IMG/VR virus record: IMGVR_UViG_3300035438_001811
Location: 5,633 to 69,632 of that record
DNA from: a virus
Direction: 5' to 3' (one strand)
Length of the DNA: 64,000 nt
A program made the position numbers and the translations under genes. Under the pieces are notes generated by a model, which was given only the letters and a program-made list of their open reading frames with translations, searched no databases and was not told where the DNA came from. Below are positions 7,544-29,172 of this stretch, piece after piece (positions within the stretch are counted from its first letter, which is position 1; every line of letters starts with the position of its first letter).

Positions 7544-7645
7544 ACTGTACCTTTACCAAGTATCGCGTTACATTCACAGCATTCATAATCTTTGCGCCCT
7601 TTAACCATCCGCATGGTTTTGCATCTGCAAGCGCCTTTTAGCGGT
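7544..7645. repeat. ~100-bp near-identical copy of 11537-11638 (5' part of ORF 11248-11649)
   Basis: AAGTATCGCGTTACATTCACAGCATTCATAATCTTTGCGCCCTTT occurs at both loci. Confidence 0.9.
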
Positions 7646-7711
7646 GTGGAGAAGTGGCATCTCGTGGGTCTCATAATCCCAAGAACACTGGTTCGATTCC
7701 AGTCACCGCCA
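7640..7711 (+). tRNA. tRNA-Met(CAT) (CAU anticodon; Met or Ile2 identity not resolved)
   Basis: Cloverleaf: GCGGTG/CACCGC acceptor, loop CTCATAA, T arm ACTGG-TTCGATT-CCAGT; A1:C72 mismatch; no encoded CCA. Confidence 0.85.
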
Positions 7712-7713
7712 TA

Positions 7714-19649: not shown

Positions 19650-20398
19650 ATGCTAATTTTTGAGATTGAGCAAAAGCCTACCTTTAAATCTAAAACCGTT
19701 TTTGGTGTTGAAATCCCATTGCTAGGGGAACTAACTGTTAATGAAACGATCGCAGTCGATAAGGCGATCGCTACCGACCTTAGCTCAACCAGTGCCAATA
19801 CTGAATGGAAAATCGTTCAGGTATCTGCATGGTTATCAGTGCGATTATCTGTAAGCCGTGAAGAAATTACAGCGCAACTCAAAAAATCAATGCCTTTGAT
19901 CGAGGCGCTATGGTTAACTTTTGTCTCAGAACGTGAGGGCATTACAGAAAGCTATGAACTCGATGAACCAGTGACGGAGGGAAAGGAAGACGATCCAACC
20001 GTACCGTTAAAGACATCGAAGAAGAGTGGAATCAAATCTACCTCAAACTCACATCAAGTTGCTTTGCTCCAAAATTCAGAGATGGATTTGGACAGCAACG
20101 AATAAGCGTAATCAGATCGCATCTTGCTTATATCAATGAGCAAGAGTTACAGCGATCGGCTGAGCTAGAGGTTATTGCGGCGCGAAATACGTTGGCTACT
20201 GGTGATTTTAAAGACCGTGAGAAAGCTTTCCGATCTTTGACACCATCATTGCAGGCATTGCGGAGAATGCAAGCCAAAAAGCAGATGAGCGTTAGGTTTG
20301 CTAAGAAATTTGCGAAGCTATTTAAGGAAGGCAAAATACCGAATTGGGTAGTTGAAATTTGCGATTACGAGACGATTGAATTATTAGCGGGTGATTGA
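19650..20398 (+). CDS. Tail assembly chaperone gpG (19650-20105) and -1 frameshift product gpGT (to 20398)
   Basis: Lambda-type slippery site G GGA AAG at 19979-19985; the -1 frame is open from there through ORF 20192-20398. Confidence 0.85.
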
Positions 20399-20399
20399 T

Positions 20400-23300
20400 A
20401 TGGCTGATGAGAATTATGCAATTAGAGTTAGTTTTGATGGCATCGACAAGGCGATCGGTGACATCAAATTACTGCAATCTGCGATCGGCAATATCAAATT
20501 ACCTGCACTTAATATCGATTTAAGTAAATTTACTGGCATTGAAAAAACTCAGATTGCATCCGTCGCAAGAGTAGAAGCTGCTCAAATTGCGTCACAAGCT
20601 AAAGTTGACGCAGCTAGATTAACAGGAGCTTCAAAAGTCTCAGCGTTAGAAGTTGGCGCGATCGCTAAATTAGAGTCGGCTCAAATAGCAGCTAACGCTA
20701 AAGTTTTAGCTGCTAAAGATGGCAATGCTACCAAAGTCGTTAACGCTGAAATAGCAGCGCAATCTAGATTAGAAGCTGCGAGAATAGCATCTGCTACAAA
20801 AATCAGTAATGCAGAAATATCAACGATCGCCAAATTAGAAGCCGCTAGGATTGCATCTGCCACTAAGGTTAGTGCTGTAGAAGCCTCAACAATTGCAAAG
20901 CTAGAAGCGGCTCAAATAGCTTCCAATGCCAAGATTGAAGCATTGCGATTAAATTTGTCAGCAAAAGCGATCGCTAATGAAGTGGCAGCAGTTACTAAGA
21001 TTGAATCAATAAAGATTGCTAGCGATGCAAAATTAGCTGCAAATAAAGACTCTAATGCTGTTAAATTGCGTACTGCGGAACTAAGTAATGAAAGTAAAAT
21101 CGAAGCTGCTAAACTTGCCACAACTGCCAAAATAACGGCTGCTGACAGTGCGGCAATCGCAAAATTAGAAGCGGCGGAATTAGCTTCTAATGCCAAGATT
21201 GAAGCTGCTAAAATTGCATCTGCTACTAAACTGGAAATAGCAGAAAAAGCAAGATTAGATAGGCAAAGAAAAGAGTCAGAAGCGCTAGCAAGAACAGAGT
21301 CAGCAAGAGCAGCTAAAGCGATCTCTGACGCTGAAAAATCATCAACAAAACCACAATCAAAAAGCAATTCTGATGCAGTAATTGCTCAACTAGAAAAACA
21401 AAAAGCTGCTAGCACTGTACGAGTATCTGATGGCGCTGACAAAGAATCCGCCCGAATTGCACAAGAAACACTTAGATATAAGCAGCAAATTGCCGCGATT
21501 GACGCAAAGATTTTCAACCCTGCGGATATTGCTAACGCTAAAGCTCTAGCGAGTGAAATTAATAAACTCAATCTTGACAAAATCAAGAAAGGATTTGACG
21601 ATGCGAGTCCTGTAACTTTTAATCAGTTCATTGGCGCTACTACTGAGAAAGCGCGAGATTTAGCTGAGCAACTACAAAATACATCACAGACATTAGAACG
21701 GATTGGAACTACTTTTAACCAAGTTTCTAGCGCTGCGAATCAGGCATTTTTAGGCTTTGATACTGCCAAAACTAAAGTAGCGACATTATCTACTCAATCC
21801 AACGCTTTTGCTAATACAGCTATCAAGCTATCAAAGGATTTAAACAATCAAGTAACCAGCACCGAAATATTAACAGCACAATATGAAATTCTATCTAGTG
21901 GATTTATTAATGCTGCTGATGCATCAGAGATTGCCAGAGTATCGGTATTAGGTGCTAAAGCTGGTTTTACTGACACAGCTACGGTAGCTGATGCAACTAC
22001 CTCAATTTTGAATGCCTATGGTTTAGCTGCTAGCGATGCTGCTAATGTGGTAGACCAATTAGCAGTTGTGCAGGATAAAGGTAAAACAACGATCGGGCTA
22101 TTTGCTGGTCAGCTTGGTAAAGTTGCGCCAATTGCTGCAAGTGCGGGCGTAACACTAAACGAGTTAAACGCTGCCATAGCAAGCGTTACGATTAAAGGCG
22201 TTAAAACCGAGACTGCGGTTAGTGGTATTAGACAGGCGATTGTCAACTTGGTCAAGCCCACGCAATCCGCACAAAAAGTGTTGGAGGCTATTGGGATCAC
22301 TAACGCTGCTACAACGCTTAAAACTGAAGGATTAACAGGTGTACTCAATCGATTAAAAGCGGCTGGCTTAAACACCAGTAGTCAGCTATCTAAAATCTTT
22401 ACAGATATTGATGGTTTAACTGCTGTTGTCCCTTTACTTAACGACGACCTTAAGAACTTTAATGCAAATCTAGTAGCTGTTGGCAATGCATCAGGAAAAG
22501 CACAGCAAGGCTTTGATATTGTCGCTAAATCTGCTGAAGGTCAAATTACAGCAGCAATCAACAAAATCAATGAAGCTTTAGTCAATTTAGGGCGCGGCGC
22601 ACAGGTAGCTTTTGCGCCATTAGTAGCGGCTGTAGGCGCGGCTGTTGACGTATTCAACCAATTACCCGCACCATTGCAAACAGTTATAGGCGGCGTTATT
22701 GGATTAGTTGGAGGTGTCGCCACATTGGGCGCGGCTCTCACTGCGATCGGCGCGGCTGCCCCTGCTTTTATTGGTGGACTAAAATTATTTGGCATTCAGG
22801 CGGCGGCTTCTACCGTGGCGACTACAGGGCTAGCCACTGCTAACACCGTAACCGCCACATCGTTTGTAGGCTTAGGAGTAGCAACCAAAGCGGCGGCGGC
22901 TGGGTTTGTGACGTTCGCAACTACAGCTACTACCACAGTGACAGGCGCTTTGGTATCTGTTGGAGCATTGTTAGCTAAAGGCACGATTCTGGCTGGTACT
23001 TTTGCTGTGGTTGCTGTTAAAGCTATTGCGTCTATAGTTGTGGCTATGGCTCCATTAGTGGCAACTTTAGGGGTTGTCTATTTAGCCTTTGAATCTGTCC
23101 GAAATACAGCTAACTTATTTGGCGAAATTAACAGCAATAAAGCTGAGGATGCATTCGACAAAATTCTAAACAAAAGTACGGCTGTAGATGCGAAATTAAA
23201 ACAAGCGACTGCTACTTCACAATCGTTTACCGATAAGCTAGCAGGTGGATTTGATAAGGTAGAGAATCCAATACAAGGGGCGGCGCTTGCAATCACCAAT

Positions 23301-25316
23301 TTAAGCAATGCTTTAATCGGTGCTGAGTCAGGGGCTTCTAAATTTGGTTCGCAATTTGGCTTTATTACTCAACAACAATTAGAGGCGCAAAAGACTGCGA
23401 TCGCTTATAGTAACGCGATTACAACACTTAGCTCTGGTTTTCAGCCAGCCGTCAATCTTATCGGTAAATATGGCACTGGCATTGACTTTGAACGTCGCGC
23501 AACTCAGTTGTCAATTAAAGAAAACAAGGAATACCAAAAACAACTAGCTGCTACCAGCGAACGATTAAAGCAAGAAGTATCCGATCTAGAGGCTATCGGT
23601 AAGCAGAAAGGAGTAGACCAAGCTGCTAACAAATTAGAGATTGATTCTCGGAAAACATTGATCGCCCAATCGGATCAAAAAATTGCTGTACTCAAAAAGG
23701 AAGAGGAAGCGGTTAAGGCTGTATCTGATGCTGAAAGGGATAGAGCTAAACAGCTACGAGAAAACCAAAACCAAGACGCAGAAAAATCAATCAAGCGCTC
23801 CTTTGACGATGGCAAAACCAAGCGCGATCGCGAAAATGCTGATGCTATCAAGGCTATCGAAGAGAAAAACGCACTCGCAAAAGGTGAGCTAGATCGCAGA
23901 CAAGCGCTAGAAACTGAAGCGCTGAAGGAAAAGCAAACCCTAGCTCTACAAGACAAGCAAAGGGCATTTGATGATACTCAGAACGCCAAAAAGCTACAAC
24001 TTGAAGATGCTCTTGATGCTAAGAAGCGGGCGAATGAGGAGAAACTCAACGCACTCAAACAGGCATTTGACGATAAGCAAAACGCGCTTAAAGAACAGAG
24101 AGCAGAGAAACAACGTAAGGACGATGAGGCATTTGCAGCGCAACGCGCTCAACGTGACAAACAAGCAAGTGAGGCTCTATCAGGTGCTAAGCAGCTAATC
24201 AGTAATGAGGGTGCGATCGCCACTGCTAAACCAGAAGATCGCGCCAAGATTGCGGCGCAAATCGAAGAAGAAGAACGCATTAGAGCACAAGCTGCTACTC
24301 AAGGCGTAGCTGGTGGTACTGAATCCCAAGAACAATTAGTAGCTAAGGCTAAGCAAATCGCCCAAATATCTGCGATTGCCAACGGTGAGGAACAGAAAAA
24401 AGTAGAGTTTGCTATTGCTGAACTTGATAAAGCGAACAAAGCTAAGCAAGCTGAAATTGATAAGGCTGAAGTTGCAAAGCGCACTGAAGAAAAACAAGCT
24501 AGTGACAAAGTTTTTGAAGCTGAACAAAATGCTGCTAAGCTTGCCTTTGATGCTGAGCAAAACACTGCCAAGCTTAACTTTGAAAACACTGTTCTCAAAC
24601 CTGAAAAGCAAAAGATCGAAGCTGAATTACAAGCGAGTAAATTAGCCTTTGAGCGTGGCGAACTTGCAGCGCTGAAAACACAACAAGCAGCCGATGAGAG
24701 GGCTTTAAAACTTCAGCAAACTAACGAGGACTTAGCAGCTAAGAAAGCTGCTGATGCTGAGTTAGAGACGATTAAGCTCGCTCAAAAAGAGAAAGAACTA
24801 GCACTTGATCGCGCCTTTGAGGATCAGAAAATTGAACGTGAGAGAGCATTTAAGGAATCTCAGAGAGCCTTAGATAAAGCATCTGCCATAGAGATTCAAC
24901 AAATCCTTGGTAAGTCTGCACAGCAAATTATCAGCGCTCTCACGTTAGCTAAAGGTGATTCTAAGTTTGGGGCTGTAGCTGGTATTGGCACTAGTCCTAA
25001 AGGAGATGCTAAAGCTCTAAATAATCAGGATGAAGTAAATAGGGCGGCGTTAGGAGCTAGCACTTTACCTAAGTTTGCGCGTGGCGTTACAAACTTTGTC
25101 GGGGGTGCGGCATTGGTTGGGGAAAAAGGTGCTGAGCTGGTGACATTGCCTAGAGGCTCTAACGTGCTACCAGCAAACCAAACCAAGAACGTGCTTAATA
25201 ATTCGGGCGGCAATAAAACCTATAACGTAAATGTAACCACTGGCAGTGGTAATGCTACAGAGATCGCTTTACAGATACAGAGAGAGATGGCACGATCGGC
25301 GGCGCTGAGTATGTAG
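20400..25316 (+). CDS. Tail tape measure protein (TP901-like core)
   Basis: ~1640 aa, Ala-rich; GKTTI..FA..LG.VAPIAA..GV...EL.AAI core; C-terminal FA.G.....G.ALVGE.G.ELV..P.G. Confidence 0.95.
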   Translation: MADENYAIRVSFDGIDKAIGDIKLLQSAIGNIKLPALNIDLSKFTGIEKTQIASVARVEAAQIASQAKVDAARLTGASKVSALEVGAIAKLESAQIAANAKVLAAKDGNATKVVNAEIAAQSRLEAARIASATKISNAEISTIAKLEAARIASATKVSAVEASTIAKLEAAQIASNAKIEALRLNLSAKAIANEVAAVTKIESIKIASDAKLAANKDSNAVKLRTAELSNESKIEAAKLATTAKITAADSAAIAKLEAAELASNAKIEAAKIASATKLEIAEKARLDRQRKESEALARTESARAAKAISDAEKSSTKPQSKSNSDAVIAQLEKQKAASTVRVSDGADKESARIAQETLRYKQQIAAIDAKIFNPADIANAKALASEINKLNLDKIKKGFDDASPVTFNQFIGATTEKARDLAEQLQNTSQTLERIGTTFNQVSSAANQAFLGFDTAKTKVATLSTQSNAFANTAIKLSKDLNNQVTSTEILTAQYEILSSGFINAADASEIARVSVLGAKAGFTDTATVADATTSILNAYGLAASDAANVVDQLAVVQDKGKTTIGLFAGQLGKVAPIAASAGVTLNELNAAIASVTIKGVKTETAVSGIRQAIVNLVKPTQSAQKVLEAIGITNAATTLKTEGLTGVLNRLKAAGLNTSSQLSKIFTDIDGLTAVVPLLNDDLKNFNANLVAVGNASGKAQQGFDIVAKSAEGQITAAINKINEALVNLGRGAQVAFAPLVAAVGAAVDVFNQLPAPLQTVIGGVIGLVGGVATLGAALTAIGAAAPAFIGGLKLFGIQAAASTVATTGLATANTVTATSFVGLGVATKAAAAGFVTFATTATTTVTGALVSVGALLAKGTILAGTFAVVAVKAIASIVVAMAPLVATLGVVYLAFESVRNTANLFGEINSNKAEDAFDKILNKSTAVDAKLKQATATSQSFTDKLAGGFDKVENPIQGAALAITNLSNALIGAESGASKFGSQFGFITQQQLEAQKTAIAYSNAITTLSSGFQPAVNLIGKYGTGIDFERRATQLSIKENKEYQKQLAATSERLKQEVSDLEAIGKQKGVDQAANKLEIDSRKTLIAQSDQKIAVLKKEEEAVKAVSDAERDRAKQLRENQNQDAEKSIKRSFDDGKTKRDRENADAIKAIEEKNALAKGELDRRQALETEALKEKQTLALQDKQRAFDDTQNAKKLQLEDALDAKKRANEEKLNALKQAFDDKQNALKEQRAEKQRKDDEAFAAQRAQRDKQASEALSGAKQLISNEGAIATAKPEDRAKIAAQIEEEERIRAQAATQGVAGGTESQEQLVAKAKQIAQISAIANGEEQKKVEFAIAELDKANKAKQAEIDKAEVAKRTEEKQASDKVFEAEQNAAKLAFDAEQNTAKLNFENTVLKPEKQKIEAELQASKLAFERGELAALKTQQAADERALKLQQTNEDLAAKKAADAELETIKLAQKEKELALDRAFEDQKIERERAFKESQRALDKASAIEIQQILGKSAQQIISALTLAKGDSKFGAVAGIGTSPKGDAKALNNQDEVNRAALGASTLPKFARGVTNFVGGAALVGEKGAELVTLPRGSNVLPANQTKNVLNNSGGNKTYNVNVTTGSGNATEIALQIQREMARSAALSM

Positions 25317-25619: not shown

Positions 25620-27296
25620 ATGACTAGCAATGAAGCCACTACTAAAAAGATAGCTGAATTTAAGTTGTCTCCCACGATTGAGCAAAGCGCACAAATTGAT
25701 ATGTGGCTTACTCAACTTAAATGGGTATGGAATGTTGGTTTAAGTCTGCTTGAGGAAGATCAGCAACGTTATTGGAGGGCAAAACAAGAATGGGCAGAGT
25801 ATAGTCCTGAAGTATGGCAATGGCGAAAATCATGCAAAATCGACGGGATTGAGTATGTAAATCCTGATAATCAATACGGGCTTTGCTGTGCTTACTATCC
25901 TGATAAATGCGACATCCGCAAACATCGGGATATTGAAGAGCCATTTAAGCACGTTAAAAATTATCGCTTTATCGCTAATATGCGATGTCCTGATTTTTTG
26001 CACCCTATCGATAGCGAATCACGGCGATCTGTTGTGGATAACCTAATTGATGCATGGACTCAGTACCGCAAGGGGAAAAAAGGCAGACCACGTTACAAAA
26101 AGAAAGCTGATAAATTAGAAAGCTTTTCTAACGGCAATGGTCGGATATACGTTAATATTTCGCCCTTGGGTAATGACAATGCATTAATTGACTATCCAAA
26201 GCTAGGGTCAATCAAATGCAAGGGATTCTACCGTCGCTATGCTGGTAATCATACAATTGTACGCATCGTCAAAAAGGCTGACGGCTATTATGTGCAATTC
26301 ACTAGCACGGTAGACGTAAAGCCCGTTAAACCAGCAAAAAAGCAAGAAGTAGGCTTAGATTTTGGTGTAGTCGCTCCTATTGCTGATAGTGATGGAAGAT
26401 TGCATAAATCAAAACGCTATGCCAAATTGCAAGCTAAGAAATTAGCTCGTATTCAGCGCTCTATCTCACGCTCAAAAGATGGCTCTAACCGTCTAAAAGC
26501 TAAACGCTCTAAACTAGCTAAAGTGCATCTTAAAATCGCTAGGCAACGCGATCGCTTTATTCATAAGCTCACATCCAAGTATGTGAGTGAATATCAAAGC
26601 ATTGCCATTGAGGATACCAAGGTTAAAAATATGGTACGCGCACCAAAGGCGAAAGCTGGTGAAAATGGCGCGTTTCTACCTAATGGCGCGGCTGCAAAAG
26701 CTGGCTTAAATAAAGCGCTTCTTGATGTGGCGATCGGCAAAACAAAAACGATGCTAGAGACTAAATCTAAAGCATCAGAAAGAATATTTGTGAAAGTACC
26801 CGCACCGCACACTTCTCAAGGTTGCTCTCAGTGTGGCTACTATTCCGAAGAGTTTCGACCATCTCAAGCTGTTTTTAAATGCTTGAATTGTGGTCATGGT
26901 GACAACGCAGATAGCAACGCCTCAACCGTTATCCGTAATGTTGCTTTTAAAGGCTTGGTTTTGAAACCATACCCCGCTTCATCGGGGGAATTTAAGGGCG
27001 TGGATCATGCAACGCATGGGAAGAAGCGCCAACCGAGTAAGACTCGCAAGAGTAAGAAAGGATCGGTAGGAGAAACATCTACCGCAATCAACCGCGAAAG
27101 CGGGGCTGTAAATAGTCTAACCACTCGCGCAAACCCTGAAAACCAATCACCACAAGACTTTGAGCTATGGCAAGATTTAAAATCACTATCTAAAGCCAAC
27201 TCTAAATTGCAATCTCGTAAGCGATCCGCGCAAATCGATCCTAATATTGGCGCTCAGCTTGGTTTTTGGGATCTGTCTGGTGAAGCTTCTGGTTAA
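25620..27296 (+). CDS. tnpB: CRISPR-associated TnpB-like RuvC nuclease (type V-U / Cas12f-like effector)
   Basis: RuvC-I VGLDFG, RuvC-II IAIEDT, Zn ribbon CSQC..CLNC, RuvC-III NADSNA; directly adjacent CRISPR array; no tnpA. Confidence 0.9.
   Translation: MTSNEATTKKIAEFKLSPTIEQSAQIDMWLTQLKWVWNVGLSLLEEDQQRYWRAKQEWAEYSPEVWQWRKSCKIDGIEYVNPDNQYGLCCAYYPDKCDIRKHRDIEEPFKHVKNYRFIANMRCPDFLHPIDSESRRSVVDNLIDAWTQYRKGKKGRPRYKKKADKLESFSNGNGRIYVNISPLGNDNALIDYPKLGSIKCKGFYRRYAGNHTIVRIVKKADGYYVQFTSTVDVKPVKPAKKQEVGLDFGVVAPIADSDGRLHKSKRYAKLQAKKLARIQRSISRSKDGSNRLKAKRSKLAKVHLKIARQRDRFIHKLTSKYVSEYQSIAIEDTKVKNMVRAPKAKAGENGAFLPNGAAAKAGLNKALLDVAIGKTKTMLETKSKASERIFVKVPAPHTSQGCSQCGYYSEEFRPSQAVFKCLNCGHGDNADSNASTVIRNVAFKGLVLKPYPASSGEFKGVDHATHGKKRQPSKTRKSKKGSVGETSTAINRESGAVNSLTTRANPENQSPQDFELWQDLKSLSKANSKLQSRKRSAQIDPNIGAQLGFWDLSGEASG
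26968..27094 (+). ncRNA. Putative omegaRNA-derived tracrRNA overlapping the effector ORF (boundaries approximate)
   Basis: IS200/605-like omegaRNA motif GGAATTTAAGGGCGTGGA..GAAGCGCC; hairpins CATGC/GCATG and CGGTAG/CTACCG; anti-repeat CAATCAACCG at 27085-27094. Confidence 0.55.
27095..27278 (+). promoter_or_regulatory. Cyanobacterial-type CRISPR leader within the ORF tail
   Basis: AGCGGGG followed by two spaced CGCGCAAA motifs (CTCGCGCAAACCCTGAAAACC; GATCCGCGCAAATCGATCC) before repeat 1. Confidence 0.55.
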
Positions 27297-27750
27297 GCGA
27301 TCGGCTGATTGGAAGCGCAAAGCGCCCGCAAAGCTTTTTAAATGGCTAACCAGTGGGTGAAGCTTCTGGTTAAGCGATCGGCTGATTGGAAGGGATATCA
27401 GAGTCAGAGAGAGAGGCATTAGTCCAAGGTGAAGCTTCTGGTTAAGCGATCGGCTGATTGGAAGTTTGATGGTATCCCGATCCCTGATGTGAATAGCAGG
27501 TGAAGCTTCTGGTTAAGCGATCGGCTGATTGGAAGAGACCGACATCGACAATATACTATTGAGAGAATTAGGTGAAGCTTCTGGTTAAGCGATCGGCTGA
27601 TTGGAAGGCAGAAAGCATCATAGAGCCATTGCCAATCATTGAGGTGAAGCTTCTGGTTAAGCGATCGGCTGATTGGAAGTGAATATTCATAAAATCCATT
27701 GGAGCTTTTAGACGGTGAAACTAGTGGTTAAGCGATCGGCTGATTGGAAG
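27279..27750 (+). CRISPR. CRISPR array: 7 repeats of 37 bp (GGTGAAGCTTCTGGTTAAGCGATCGGCTGATTGGAAG) and 6 spacers of 34-40 bp
   Basis: Repeats start at 27279, 27356, 27428, 27499, 27571, 27643 and 27714; the last is degenerate (GGTGAAACTAGTGG...). Confidence 0.98.
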
Positions 27751-27836
27751 ACCAAATGCGGCGCAAAGACAAGATGATTGATGCATTGCTAGAGGCGATC
27801 GCAAAGATGAAGTGATATCTAAACGATTGATTAAAC

Positions 27837-27886
27837 GCAACAAAAAGACCATTTTCCTGTCATCGGGAAAATGGTCTTTTTGTTGC
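27837..27886. terminator. Long inverted-repeat terminator downstream of the array
   Basis: GCAACAAAAAGACCATTTTCC / GGAAAATGGTCTTTTTGTTGC. Confidence 0.9.
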
Positions 27887-28085
27887 AAGGGGTGACTCAC
27901 CGCTAAGGAATAGGGTTTAACCTTGCATGGCTATTTTAGCTTAATCCCCATTCAACCGATGTTCCAACTCAGGATAATATTCCCGAATCAAGCGCTTGGT
28001 TAATGCGCTCGTATCGATGGGGAACGGGTTGTGTACTTTGGGCTTTGGGCTTGCCCTTGGTAGCACCTTGGTGATATCGAATTGC

Positions 28086-28532
28086 TCATTTTCCATATGC
28101 TCTTCTCAATTCAGGCAACAAATTGATCGCAGTTTCGTAAGCCATTTGCACCTCACGAAATTTGTTAGGATCGCCGCCCGTATCAGGGTGATGTAATTTC
28201 GCCTGTTTGCGGTAAGCAGATTTAATTTCCCTCTCACTATTTGGGAACTTATCCAAGCCCAAAACAGCAAGAACAGAATCAATCCCTTTATCCCAGAAAG
28301 TCTCAACGCTACCCGTCATATTTTCAACTGGCAACGCCTCGACGAATTGCCAAATTGTGAATGTTGCACCATGCAAACCGTAGCCTCTGATTTTCCAAGC
28401 TCGGTAAGTCACATAGAACTTTGTACCACCCTCAGACGGGCATACGTTATCAATATCCATAGGCGAAACATCGAGCATTTTAGCGGCGCGGCGGCGCAAT
28501 TCGTCGAATGAGAATTTGATTTTGATAGACAT
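28086..28532 (-). CDS. J-domain (DnaJ-like) protein
   Basis: VLGL......EIKSAYRKQAKLHHPDTGGDPNKFREVQMAYE. Confidence 0.9.
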   Translation of the reverse strand: MSIKIKFSFDELRRRAAKMLDVSPMDIDNVCPSEGGTKFYVTYRAWKIRGYGLHGATFTIWQFVEALPVENMTGSVETFWDKGIDSVLAVLGLDKFPNSEREIKSAYRKQAKLHHPDTGGDPNKFREVQMAYETAINLLPELRRAYGK

Positions 28533-28536
28533 TGGT

Positions 28537-29172
28537 TTACCCGTTAATTTTGCAAGCTTTAGCTGAAGAAAACCAAACTGAATCAGAATATTTTGCAGCT
28601 TCTGAGACTGAAGCAATAAAAACAGATGCATGGTAATCACCATAGCCAAGATTTATTGTGGTTTCAAGATCGTCTGCTGTAACAATTTCAGCCCAATCAC
28701 AAAAATCCGCAAAGTGCCTGACATACCCGATAGTTGTTTCGATGTCAAATTGTGCATGGGACTTGTCCTCATGACTAAAGCTCAAATAGGTAAGCTCATC
28801 AACAGCACTAAGGAATGCGTCAACTACAGCGTCTTTAGCCAGTTTCAGGACTTGGTAATCATCCTTAGTTAGCTCTAATTGGCAGACAGGGATAGGGAAT
28901 CTATAGAGCTTGTCACCAATAATACAAACTTTAATTTCAAGCCCAGAGATGTTATTTGTGAGTTGATATTCCTGAACTTGATCCCGAAACTCATGATAAC
29001 AGCCAACCTCAAATAATCTTTGCGCTCCCAAAATAGAGCCTAGTGGTGTTTGCTTTGCGATTTCTTCGGCATTATCAGGCATAGGGAATGTGCGCTCACC
29101 ATTGACGCAAGCCATTCTCTCTATTTCTAGAATTTTAGTTAGCTCTTCAGTTGTATAAACTTTGTCAAACAT
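28537..29172 (-). CDS. Hypothetical protein
   Basis: 211-aa ORF in an operon with the J-domain gene. Confidence 0.6.
   Translation of the reverse strand: MFDKVYTTEELTKILEIERMACVNGERTFPMPDNAEEIAKQTPLGSILGAQRLFEVGCYHEFRDQVQEYQLTNNISGLEIKVCIIGDKLYRFPIPVCQLELTKDDYQVLKLAKDAVVDAFLSAVDELTYLSFSHEDKSHAQFDIETTIGYVRHFADFCDWAEIVTADDLETTINLGYGDYHASVFIASVSEAAKYSDSVWFSSAKACKING

Follow-up and report, generated by a model that had tools for sequence, protein, structure and literature searches.

Where the spacers of type V-U and other Cas1-less CRISPR arrays come from is an open question; that the I-D machinery loads arrays of another type has been argued to date only for transposon (V-K) arrays, on the likeness of repeats and motifs. 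In the stretch of DNA analysed here (the window, 64,000 nucleotides) an effector gene of a phage runs directly into a CRISPR array. An earlier note on the window had proposed that a host-type leader lies inside the effector reading frame and that spacers are acquired there by the Cas1-Cas2 of the host. The window is part of a phage record of 69,632 bp (~70 kb) that is estimated to be ~90% complete. A literature search, which covered the cited papers at the level of their text, found no paper describing this locus.

The effector gene, its array and the host

The gene and the array are laid out as follows.

25620–27296, + strand: TnpB/Cas12-like effector gene, 558 amino acids, best family match type V-U2 C2c8
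27279–27750, + strand: CRISPR array with seven repeats (37 nt each) and six spacers
27279, 27356, 27428, 27499, 27571, 27643 and 27714, + strand: starts of the repeats, 37 nt each
27316–27355, 27393–27427, 27465–27498, 27536–27570, 27608–27642 and 27680–27713, + strand: spacers 1 to 6
27837–27886, no strand assigned: perfect 21-bp inverted repeat with T/A runs, terminator-like, downstream of the array

The effector sequence contains the three RuvC acidic motifs and has Pfam matches to OrfB_IS605 and Cas12f1-like TNB. Its best NCBIfam match is V_cas_c2c8 at 303.4 bits, under the curated cut-off of 350, and because of this shortfall we file it as V-U2-like; its guided_TnpB score is 192.5 bits, above the cut-off of 100, and it also matches TnpB and Cas12n (9j09) structures in the PDB. 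The layout is that of V-U2 loci, a TnpB-size RuvC protein with a same-strand array downstream and without adaptation genes. The same effector-then-array order is found in two 92%-identical phages (L008 and L009), in G434, which has the only chromosomal homologue among 71 host-family genomes, and in cyanophage vB_AphaS-CL131 (Sulcius et al. 2018, PMC6293099), whose V-U2 locus includes the closest effector relative from an isolated phage (35.9% identity). The CL131 array likewise lies downstream on the same strand and has a similar 3' repeat motif; its ORF, however, stops about 255 nt before the array and its leader is intergenic, whereas the window ORF ends 18 nt inside repeat 1, its TAA stop codon forming positions 16–18 of that repeat. 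The text of the CL131 paper reports no likeness to host repeats and does not discuss leaders. Chromosomal TnpB-like genes beside class 1 arrays (L067–L070) were set aside as too distant (31–41% identity) to inform the leader.

The items that the earlier note had described (AGCGGGG, two copies of CGCGCAAA, 37-nt repeats, 34–40-nt spacers and a degenerate distal repeat) are all present in the sequence. The six spacers are 40, 35, 34, 35, 35 and 34 nt long; repeats 1 to 6 are identical, and repeat 7 (27714–27750) is degenerate in its 5' half. A scan of 185,579 genomes with the phage repeat found no array and four single matches, and of the two inspected (L013 and L015, leaving L012 and L014) one proved to be a host spacer and the other to lie within a gene. 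The repeat probe GGTTANNNGATCNNNTGATTGGAAG matches only L008 and L009 in IMG/VR; in metagenome contigs it gave six single matches and no further arrays, two of these matches (L033 and L037) being host spacers and the other four unrelated by eye.

The phage host was identified through spacers as a Pseudanabaena represented by a metagenome-assembled genome (G001) with a type I-D array. Sixty-seven of the 261 I-D spacers of this genome match the phage, 11 of them over their full length at 100%, and spacers 6 to 11 counted from the leader end all match it. Its operon encodes a Cas3-like protein, Cas6, Cas4, Cas1d (TIGR04093, 428.9 bits against a cut-off of 385) and Cas2; behind it come a leader of 266 nt and then the array, which has 263 repeats. 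The phage has no such module: Cas1 (PF01867), Cas2 (PF09827) and Cas4 (PF01930) have no match anywhere in the 69,632-bp record, so that the lack of adaptation genes noted earlier for the window extends to the whole record. Nor were integrase, serine recombinase or lysogeny genes found in the phage, and spacer insertion would thus need lytic growth.

Leader boxes upstream of repeat 1

Three elements upstream of the array bear on its leader.

27092–27103, + strand: CCGC-GAAA-GCGG tetraloop hairpin carrying AGCGGGG (27099–27105), invariant in three loci
27125–27140, + strand: leader box 1 (TCGCGCAAACCCTGAA), whose CGCGCAA starts 153 nt before repeat 1
27225–27235, + strand: leader box 2 (TCCGCGCAAAT), whose CGCGCAA starts 52 nt before repeat 1

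The two copies of CGCGCAAA lie in these boxes, at 27126–27133 and 27227–27234. Both TCGCGCAA boxes of the host-family I-D leaders, at -153 and -52, are present in the phage: CGCGC[AG]A occurs exactly 153 and 52 nt before repeat 1 in 15 of 22 such leaders, and CGCGCAA occurs at exactly these distances in the window, L008 and G434. Box 2 corresponds to motif I of I-D leaders (about -50); this motif, about 50 bp upstream, increases acquisition by Cas1-Cas2 on their own (Kieper, Almendros & Brouns 2019, PMC6607411). In that study cyanobacterial I-D leaders have this short motif ~50 bp before repeat 1 and more conserved motifs 100–210 bp upstream; like the phage locus, the systems have 37-bp repeats, spacers of about 35 bp and a GTN PAM. 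The published distal I-D motif TTGGC at -194 to -212 (PMC6607411) was not seen by eye in the window. Unlike known I-D leaders, the phage leader has no adjacent cas4-cas1-cas2, lies inside an ORF and has no overall homology to them. In host leaders box 2 is also immediately preceded by a conserved -10-like element, TAYAAT.

Could the likeness to host leaders be accidental? The short motifs taken singly are not enriched in the window (CGCGCAAA 8 against 4.2 expected, AGCGGGG 5 against 3.7), and nothing in the phage is matched significantly by an nhmmer profile of the 22 host leaders (best E=1); BLAST of the phage leader region against G001 returned only a host spacer. Outside the two boxes identity falls to background level in the phage leader, also in the 45 nt nearest the repeat and in the distal block. 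The single-motif counts and the lack of a profile match would fit a coincidence, but coincidence does not readily put two 7-mers precisely at the host distances in each of three diverged loci. The window contains the spaced pair CGCGCAA-N94-CGCGCAA once and none of 100 shuffles contains it, and when 46 conserved host (offset, 7-mer) pairs were scanned over 138,834 anchor positions in the phage genome, two separate matches were obtained at only 2 anchors, one of which is repeat 1 with 5 matching k-mers. (An initial control using the union of all host 7-mers was too loose, with at least two matches at 1.2% of anchors.) Identity to the host consensus is 50/117 at conserved positions and 26/98 at other positions. 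We consider chance a negligible explanation, and on these comparisons a putative host-type I-D leader before the phage array is strongly supported. This part of the earlier proposal stands for the boxes, at their host offsets of 153 and 52 and with repeat 1 singled out by the scan, and not for the leader as a whole (nhmmer E at least 1). AGCGGGG, which had been taken as a further host leader motif, is dropped from it: 0 of the 22 host leaders contain it and it is not above chance in the window. L008 and L009 carry an extra in-frame stretch between AGCGGGG and box 1 (66–69 nt, read by eye), and the distance from AGCGGGG to the array is for that reason not conserved.

The array itself resembles the host arrays in dimensions: the repeats are 37 nt in both, and the spacers are 34–40 nt in the phage and mostly 34–37 nt in the host. 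The repeat sequence resembles the host's much less. The alignment of phage to host I-D repeat that the earlier note had called for gives identity at only 16 of 37 positions (counted by eye), mostly at the 3' end, which is not the near-identity to the host repeat by which virus-borne mini-arrays are recognised.

The protospacers add a further likeness. Among the 67 protospacers of the host I-D array the PAM is GTC in 24, GTT in 13 and GTG in 4. The protospacers of phage spacers 1, 3, 4 and 6 have ATC, GTT, GTC and GCT, and those of the G434 array have GTC/ATC (spacer 8) and GTC (spacer 28); G434 spacer 13 was left out, having partial-spacer matches to a repeated element. The phage spacer PAM matches the host I-D PAM on the base of these four window and two G434 protospacers, and the GTN preference could instead reflect a requirement of the effector itself. 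The phage guides match mobile-element and toxin genes in host-family genomes, HepT among them. Spacer 1 has 85–95% matches in G453 and G431, for which a weak match in G001 (19–28 nt, in a kinase-like ORF) was dropped. No convincing protospacer was found for spacer 2 or spacer 5 (the best for spacer 5 is a 15-nt match), and their exact 24-mers have 0 matches in IMG/VR. A protospacer search of the phage collection gave nothing useful (one 24-nt Salmonella phage match, E=2).

The C-terminal tail and a possible guide scaffold

The putative leader is also the end of the effector reading frame, where two features are relevant.

26955–27296, + strand: C-terminal ORF tail over the leader, codons 446–558, frame open
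27064–27084, + strand: hairpin CGGTAG...CTACCG, one compensatory double change in relatives

In the window, L008 and G434 alike, no stop codon interrupts the frame before repeat 1, and only 30 of 20,000 shuffles of the tail are free of stop codons. Between the window and G434 the tail has 28, 22 and 24 changes at codon positions 1, 2 and 3 (7 synonymous and 44 non-synonymous codons), compared with 65, 39 and 160 changes (131 synonymous and 73 non-synonymous) in the effector body. The tail is constrained at the nucleotide level and not at the protein level; its amino acids show no sign of selection. The earlier note had this DNA read in three ways, as protein, guide scaffold and leader. Of these readings, the one as leader is supported and the one as protein is weak, given a frame that stays open with no constraint at the amino-acid level; the one as scaffold is taken up here.

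Constraint of this kind would suit an RNA. In relatives the hairpin at 27064–27084 reads CGGGAG...CTCCCG, a compensatory change (pair columns 49–63, GC in two sequences and UA in one), and in each of the three loci TGATTGG in the repeat can pair with a complementary CCAATCA beside box 1. There is also a precedent: according to the text of a recent preprint (bioRxiv 10.64898/2026.03.27.714800), the tracrRNA of Cas12n (V-U4) is encoded in an unstructured, dispensable C-terminal tail, and the omega-RNA of TnpB overlaps the 3' end of its ORF, the guide being cut from its own mRNA. The window shares with Cas12n, as described there, a small TnpB-like effector, a 3' coding tail constrained as nucleic acid and an array directly downstream, and, as noted above, its effector matches the structures of both proteins. 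It differs from that description in having no convincing anti-repeat, and in a tail that has adaptation-type boxes and runs into repeat 1. It might then be argued that the tail mainly encodes a tracrRNA- or omega-RNA-like scaffold, that the boxes are RNA elements and that their likeness to leaders has nothing to do with adaptation. The fold of the leader/tail region, however, is no better than that of shuffles (z -0.36), nor are the best repeat/anti-repeat duplexes, and an RNA scaffold explains neither the exact host leader DNA offsets of the boxes nor the I-D PAM. No Rfam family matches in the tail region. We judge a scaffold as the main content of the tail to be improbable; an early reading of this sort, with an omega-RNA/tracrRNA scaffold only and chance motifs, was dropped after the host leader comparison. 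A guide-scaffold role of the tail is only suggested, by the single compensatory hairpin change and the analogy with Cas12n. The two roles are not exclusive, and a scaffold at 27020–27150 may coexist with a leader at 27125–27278.

Proposed loading of the phage array in trans

We favour the reading, to which we assign a probability of roughly 0.6, that 27125–27278 (the ~155 bp before repeat 1) is a working host-kind I-D leader inside a dispensable effector tail, and that the host Cas1d-Cas2 loads spacers there in trans. During infection of Pseudanabaena, Cas1d-Cas2 (with Cas4) would bind both boxes (-153 and -52), and prespacers some 35 nt long with a GTN flank would be inserted at the junction of leader and repeat 1, with duplication of repeat 1 at each insertion. 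With the effector stop codon inside repeat 1, each insertion would leave the gene intact, and the phage nuclease would take up new guides against mobile-element and toxin genes of host-family genomes. Binding of the boxes by the host adaptation complex and insertion on the phage DNA are what we infer; the analysis itself shows the box geometry, the agreement in PAM and in repeat and spacer length, the lack of adaptation genes, the link to the host, and a tail constrained at the nucleotide rather than the protein level. Two outcomes had been set beforehand as telling against the core claim, dissimilarity to host leaders and a phage-borne cas1 or cas2; the boxes lie at the host offsets and neither gene is in the record.

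The principal alternative is that the boxes were inherited from an ancestral I-D-derived array and kept for, e.g., regulator binding or control of the array promoter, the phage array being a passive copy whose spacers were loaded only in chromosomal V-U2 loci or gained by recombination. G434 is such a locus: it has the same boxes and a far longer array, of 32 identical repeats and a truncated terminal repeat. The phage lacks lysogeny genes, the -10-like element beside box 2 in host leaders puts the boxes within a promoter region, and the L008 array, in which the repeats are heterogeneous and one spacer measures 12 nt, looks decayed; its repeats 1 and 2 differ, so it shows no recent gain. However, the 5' halves of the phage and G434 repeats differ, which means that neither array is a simple copy of the other, and the G434 assembly, which may be incomplete, has no match to Cas1 or to an I-D leader, which makes the chromosomal site no better placed for loading. 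The identity of window repeats 1 to 6 is as after serial duplication of repeat 1, the 92%-identical phages have wholly different spacer sets, and the I-D motif at about -50 has been shown to act on acquisition (PMC6607411). We consider passive copying unlikely, though a good deal less so than the other alternatives. Compared for spacer gain at the leader end, the three known arrays have no spacer in common. Lake-water metagenomes contain the phage (24 runs with 0.39–0.73 of sampled phage words); contigs from runs X1, X6, X22 and X24 break in repeat 1 and gave only isolated spacer units.

Trans-acquisition by the host Cas1d-Cas2 is in our view the best explanation of the locus. The identical repeats 1 to 6 with a degenerate terminal repeat and the wholly different L008/L009 spacer sets speak for it; counted against it are the lack of overall leader homology, the 16/37 repeat identity, the Cas1-less G434 assembly, the lack of an integrase and the state of the L008 array.

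Related proposals exist. Hsieh & Peters (2021, bioRxiv 10.1101/2021.02.06.429022) propose, in the text of their preprint, that the arrays of V-K (Cas12k CAST) and possibly V-U2 are loaded in trans by I-D adaptation, and describe there a V-U2 array that shares a near-identical spacer with a V-K array. The V-K systems described resemble the window in having a cyanobacterial type V array without adaptation genes, 37-bp repeats, a GTN PAM and a leader motif common to I-D. The window differs from them in three respects: a phage carries the array, the RuvC motifs required for cleavage are present in the effector, and the leader lies partly within the effector ORF; unlike in the text of that study, the offsets are compared here with leaders of the actual host. 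Virus mini-CRISPR arrays with host-like leaders (Medvedeva et al. 2019, PMC6858448) and the array of cyanophage N-1 (Chenard et al. 2016, PMC4916379) are, as their texts describe them, similar in lacking cas1 and cas2, in the proposed insertion of spacers by host adaptation and in targeting rival mobile elements. According to the same texts they copy the host repeat and rely on host effectors, whereas the window array has its own class 2 effector and the divergent repeat, and has kept only the two leader boxes.

In its fullest form, which we hold tentatively and at somewhat less than even odds, the proposal is that a lytic cyanophage would write its own class 2 array by means of the host class 1 I-D Cas1d-Cas2-Cas4, with a two-box leader compressed into a translated but meaningless tail and a stop codon in repeat 1; its guides would be directed against rival mobile elements and a HepT toxin gene of the host lineage, and the host would in turn hold spacers from the phage repeats and effector gene.

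The locus provides a testable pair, a phage leader of two boxes at host offsets and a host with a Cas1d module and dozens of reciprocal spacers, and for adaptation assays it sets out a minimal leader, with boxes at -153 and -52. An open reading frame, a possible guide scaffold and a leader overlap in it in three layers, and it documents a two-way CRISPR conflict between phage and host.

The phage CRISPR locus and its host

The full IMG/VR virus record, of which the window covers positions 5633-69632, is 69,632 bp long, with an estimated completeness of about 90%. No tyrosine or serine recombinases were found in it, and the phage shows no lysogeny genes. Its CRISPR locus follows the tape-measure gene directly and has the following features:

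20391-25316, tape-measure gene (PhageMin_Tail)
25620-27296, effector ORF of 558 aa (Pfam OrfB_IS605 and a Cas12f1-like TNB domain)
27279, 27356, 27428, 27499, 27571, 27643 and 27714, starts of seven 37-nt repeats, 1-6 identical and 7 differing in its 5' half
27837-27886, perfect 21-bp hairpin downstream of the array

The top NCBIfam match of the effector is the type V-U2 protein C2c8 (303.4 bits, below the curated cut-off of 350); it passes the NCBIfam guided_TnpB model (192.5 bits, cut-off 100), and its sequence matches solved structures of TnpB and of Cas12n (9j09). When aligned to a TnpB-like chain, its translation displays the three RuvC acidic motifs GLDFG, IAIEDT and GDNAD, which we read, by analogy with TnpB, as the catalytic positions. 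The effector TAA stop codon occupies positions 16-18 of repeat 1, and the array spacers are 40, 35, 34, 35, 35 and 34 nt long. The loop-proximal part of the downstream hairpin (27845-27875) is common to other contigs in two metagenome runs, with unrelated flanks on both sides, and so this terminator-like element may be a repeated or mobile one. Window 27751-28513, with this hairpin and the greater part of a DnaJ-domain gene (28086-28649, minus strand), is absent from two related phages, L008 and L009 (compare L008 6031-6060), in which the array directly abuts the neighbouring gene. Elsewhere in the window, 7639-7712 is a normal tRNA-Met, and 2779-2876, a 98-nt Rfam tRNA match of 46.6 bits without an ARAGORN call, may represent a tRNA interrupted by an insertion or intron.

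A scan of one genome per species (185,579 species) with a tolerant form of the phage repeat found no array of this repeat and four single matches. One of these, in a Pseudanabaena sp. MAG (G001, locus L015), is a spacer within a host array, in which 30 of 31 positions match the phage repeat. The G001 type I-D locus contains, in order, a Cas3-like helicase, Cas6, Cas4, Cas1d (TIGR04093, 428.9 bits, cut-off 385), Cas2, a 266-nt leader and a 263-repeat array (37-nt repeats). Of the 261 spacers in this array, 67 have phage matches (E<=0.001), 11 of them full-length at 100%. Spacers 6-11 from the leader end are all among the 67, and several spacers target the effector gene or the phage repeats; a second G001 array with a different repeat has phage matches for 7 of 56 spacers. 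Two metagenome contigs (L033 and L037), with two different host repeats, likewise have spacers directed at a variant of the phage repeat. Because host arrays carry spacers derived from this repeat or its variant, the phage's multi-copy CRISPR repeat is itself a target of host immunity. G001 has no effector homologue, and nothing in it is similar to window 26950-27800 except the one spacer. We note that phage-repeat-derived spacers sit in host arrays of at least two repeat types (L015 6887-6920, which is G001:C297:46889-46919; L028 5753-5773; L033; L037).

Leader boxes and host I-D leaders

The earlier note had described a host-type CRISPR leader inside the effector ORF and taken it to suggest spacer acquisition by host Cas1-Cas2. 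Its motifs were found where it had placed them, AGCGGGG at 27099-27105 and CGCGCAAA at 27126-27133 and 27227-27234. Neither is enriched singly in the window (AGCGGGG, 5 versus 3.7 expected; CGCGCAAA, 8 versus 4.2 expected); the spaced box pair occurs there once, and in 0 of 100 shuffles. None of the 22 host leaders whose first repeat could be located contains AGCGGGG, which is therefore not a host leader motif.

Of the 71 family genomes, 29 conserve the I-D leader of G001, and Cas1d is likewise above cut-off in 29. Alignment of 21 full-length host leaders revealed strongly conserved blocks near -155 (TTCGCGCAAGT), from about -55 (TTCGCGCAAATGCACCTTGAAAACC) and at the leader/repeat junction (AAGCGCGGGCG), as well as a TAYAAT-like element near -65. 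In 15 of the 22 host leaders, the two copies of CGCGC[AG]A begin exactly 153 nt (box 1) and 52 nt (box 2) upstream of repeat 1; the others have a single box or a pair displaced by 1-2 nt. CGCGCAA is present at exactly 153 and 52 in three loci: the window, L008 (effector 92% identical; array region letter-for-letter the same as that of L009), and a chromosomal homologue in the family genome G434 (protein 80% identical, gene-plus-leader region 77% identical in nucleotides).

With both anchored ungapped at repeat 1, window and host consensus have the same letter at 50 of the 117 positions that are at least 90% conserved and at 26 of the remaining 98, and the agreement is limited to TCGCGCAA..C.TGAA (box 1) and T.CGCGCAAAT (box 2). 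As a control, 46 (offset, 7-mer) pairs, each shared by half or more of the 22 host leaders, were slid along both strands of the phage genome; two separate matches occurred at only 2 of 138,834 anchors, one of which is repeat 1, with five matching k-mers. An earlier, looser form of the control lacked discrimination and was set aside. A profile HMM of the 22 leaders gave no significant match to the phage (best E=1), its top-ranked matches being on box 1, and the leader of the other G001 array has no such boxes by eye. Both preset tests came out as the earlier note expected: likeness to host leaders was found, with the boxes at the host offsets (153 and 52), and there are no cas1 or cas2 genes elsewhere on the phage, the whole record having zero matches to Cas1, Cas2 and Cas4. 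The phage leader itself is very probably of the host type.

The open tail of the effector gene

The C-terminal 113 codons of the effector overlie the leader. In all three loci, in-frame indels notwithstanding, this frame is open as far as the stop at positions 16-18 of the repeat, and the other frames are closed. Only 30 of 20,000 shuffles of the 113-codon tail are stop-free, and its two other frames contain 5 and 11 stops. Between the window and G434, changes by codon position number 28/22/24 in the tail (7 synonymous and 44 non-synonymous codons) and 65/39/160 in the gene body (131 synonymous, 73 non-synonymous). The tail is thus held open, yet its changes, spread evenly over codon positions unlike those of the gene body, mark it as constrained at the nucleic-acid level, in stretches to which both boxes belong. 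A hairpin at 27064-27084 preserves its pairing through a double change, a GNRA hairpin at 27092-27103 is invariant, and TGATTGG of the repeat pairs with a conserved CCAATCA that adjoins box 1. The fold of the tail region is no better than that of shuffles (z -0.36), and no anti-repeat better than shuffles was found. According to a preprint, the Cas12n tracrRNA lies in an unstructured, dispensable C-terminal tail, and TnpB itself cuts its guide out of its own mRNA (bioRxiv 10.64898/2026.03.27.714800). Given these precedents and the tail hairpins, 27020-27150 is a plausible candidate for a guide scaffold.

Two other arrangements were observed. In cyanophage CL131 (L011 3893-4147) the effector ORF ends some 255 nt short of the array, and the intergenic leader has GCGACCCTCGGAAAC about 57 nt before repeat 1, similar to the class 1 leader element ACCTTGAAAA. 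It also has a candidate anti-repeat roughly 168 nt upstream, with a duplex of -25.4 kcal/mol against a mean of -20.7 and a best value of -28.4 for shuffles. In L067 2039-4700 (G205:C209, oriented) a TnpB-like gene (41% identity) immediately precedes cas2 and a long array of class 1 type, with a lone degenerate copy of the repeat of that array directly after the TnpB-like ORF.

Proposed spacer acquisition in trans, and spacer targets

Protospacers of the host I-D array (n=67) have the 5' flanks GTC (24), GTT (13), GTG (4), ATT (3) and ATC (3), and this array selects a 5' GTN PAM. A search of the phage leader plus array against the 71 family genomes located protospacers for four of the six phage spacers, in unique sequence without flanking repeats:

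Spacer 1, 95% in G453 and 85% in G431, 5' flank ATC
Spacer 3, 97%, flank GTT
Spacer 4, 97% in three genomes, flank GTC
Spacer 6, 89-92%, flank GCT

The chance of GTY at a random site is 1/32, and that of at least two in four is about 0.006. Among the 29 loci examined, G434 array spacer 8 has flanks GTC/ATC and spacer 28 has GTC; spacer 13 was dropped from the PAM set as its matches are partial. The 37-nt repeat length and the spacer lengths are alike in phage and host. By manual count the phage and host I-D repeats have 16 of 37 positions in common, 7 of them within the last 9, and the G434 repeat and junction (GGCG|GATGCAA) are nearer to those of the host (GGCG|GATTCAA) than are those of the phage.

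An I-D leader motif at -50 is known to promote acquisition with Cas1-Cas2 alone (PMC6607411). I-D loading has been proposed for V-K and perhaps V-U2 arrays (bioRxiv 10.1101/2021.02.06.429022), and host loading for viral mini-arrays with host-like leaders (PMC6858448). The host I-D adaptation module is indicated by box geometry, by the PAM and by the lengths of repeats and spacers alike, and we put the probability that this module acquires spacers in trans onto the phage array at about 0.6. No direct sign of insertion into the phage DNA emerged: the three known arrays (window, L008 and G434) have no spacers in common, repeats 1 and 2 of L008 differ, and metagenome contigs break off within arrays and so give no array order. 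The G434 homologue, the only chromosomal one among the 71 family genomes, lies among ordinary chromosomal genes (L091 6263-10330, G434:C33) and has 32 perfectly identical repeats and a truncated terminal one; the G434 assembly has no match to Cas1 or the I-D leader.

V-U2 loci on cyanophages, for which the CL131 locus is a precedent (PMC6293099), cross-type adaptation hypotheses and viral mini-arrays are all known kinds. The new combination is a phage-borne class 2 effector and array that keep only two boxes of a host class 1 leader, at exact offsets, inside the open but protein-neutral tail of the effector, whose stop codon is in repeat 1; a literature search, with figures and supplements of the cited papers outside its reach, found no description of it.

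The target of spacer 4 is a HepT-like RNase gene (PF01934, 73.6 bits), and that of spacer 3 encodes a protein of 1170 aa (weak phage-replication match). Two genes 2.5 kb apart, on one island of a host-family genome (L092 3900-14900, G431:C1), are the targets of spacers 1 and 6. This island, with its FtsK/SpoIIIE protein, serine recombinase, Tn3 transposase and type I restriction R subunit, resembles a mobile element that has integrated. G434 spacers 8 and 28 target an integrase and a multi-copy TnpB. Judged by the targets matched, these arrays thus target other mobile elements as well as a toxin gene of the host lineage.
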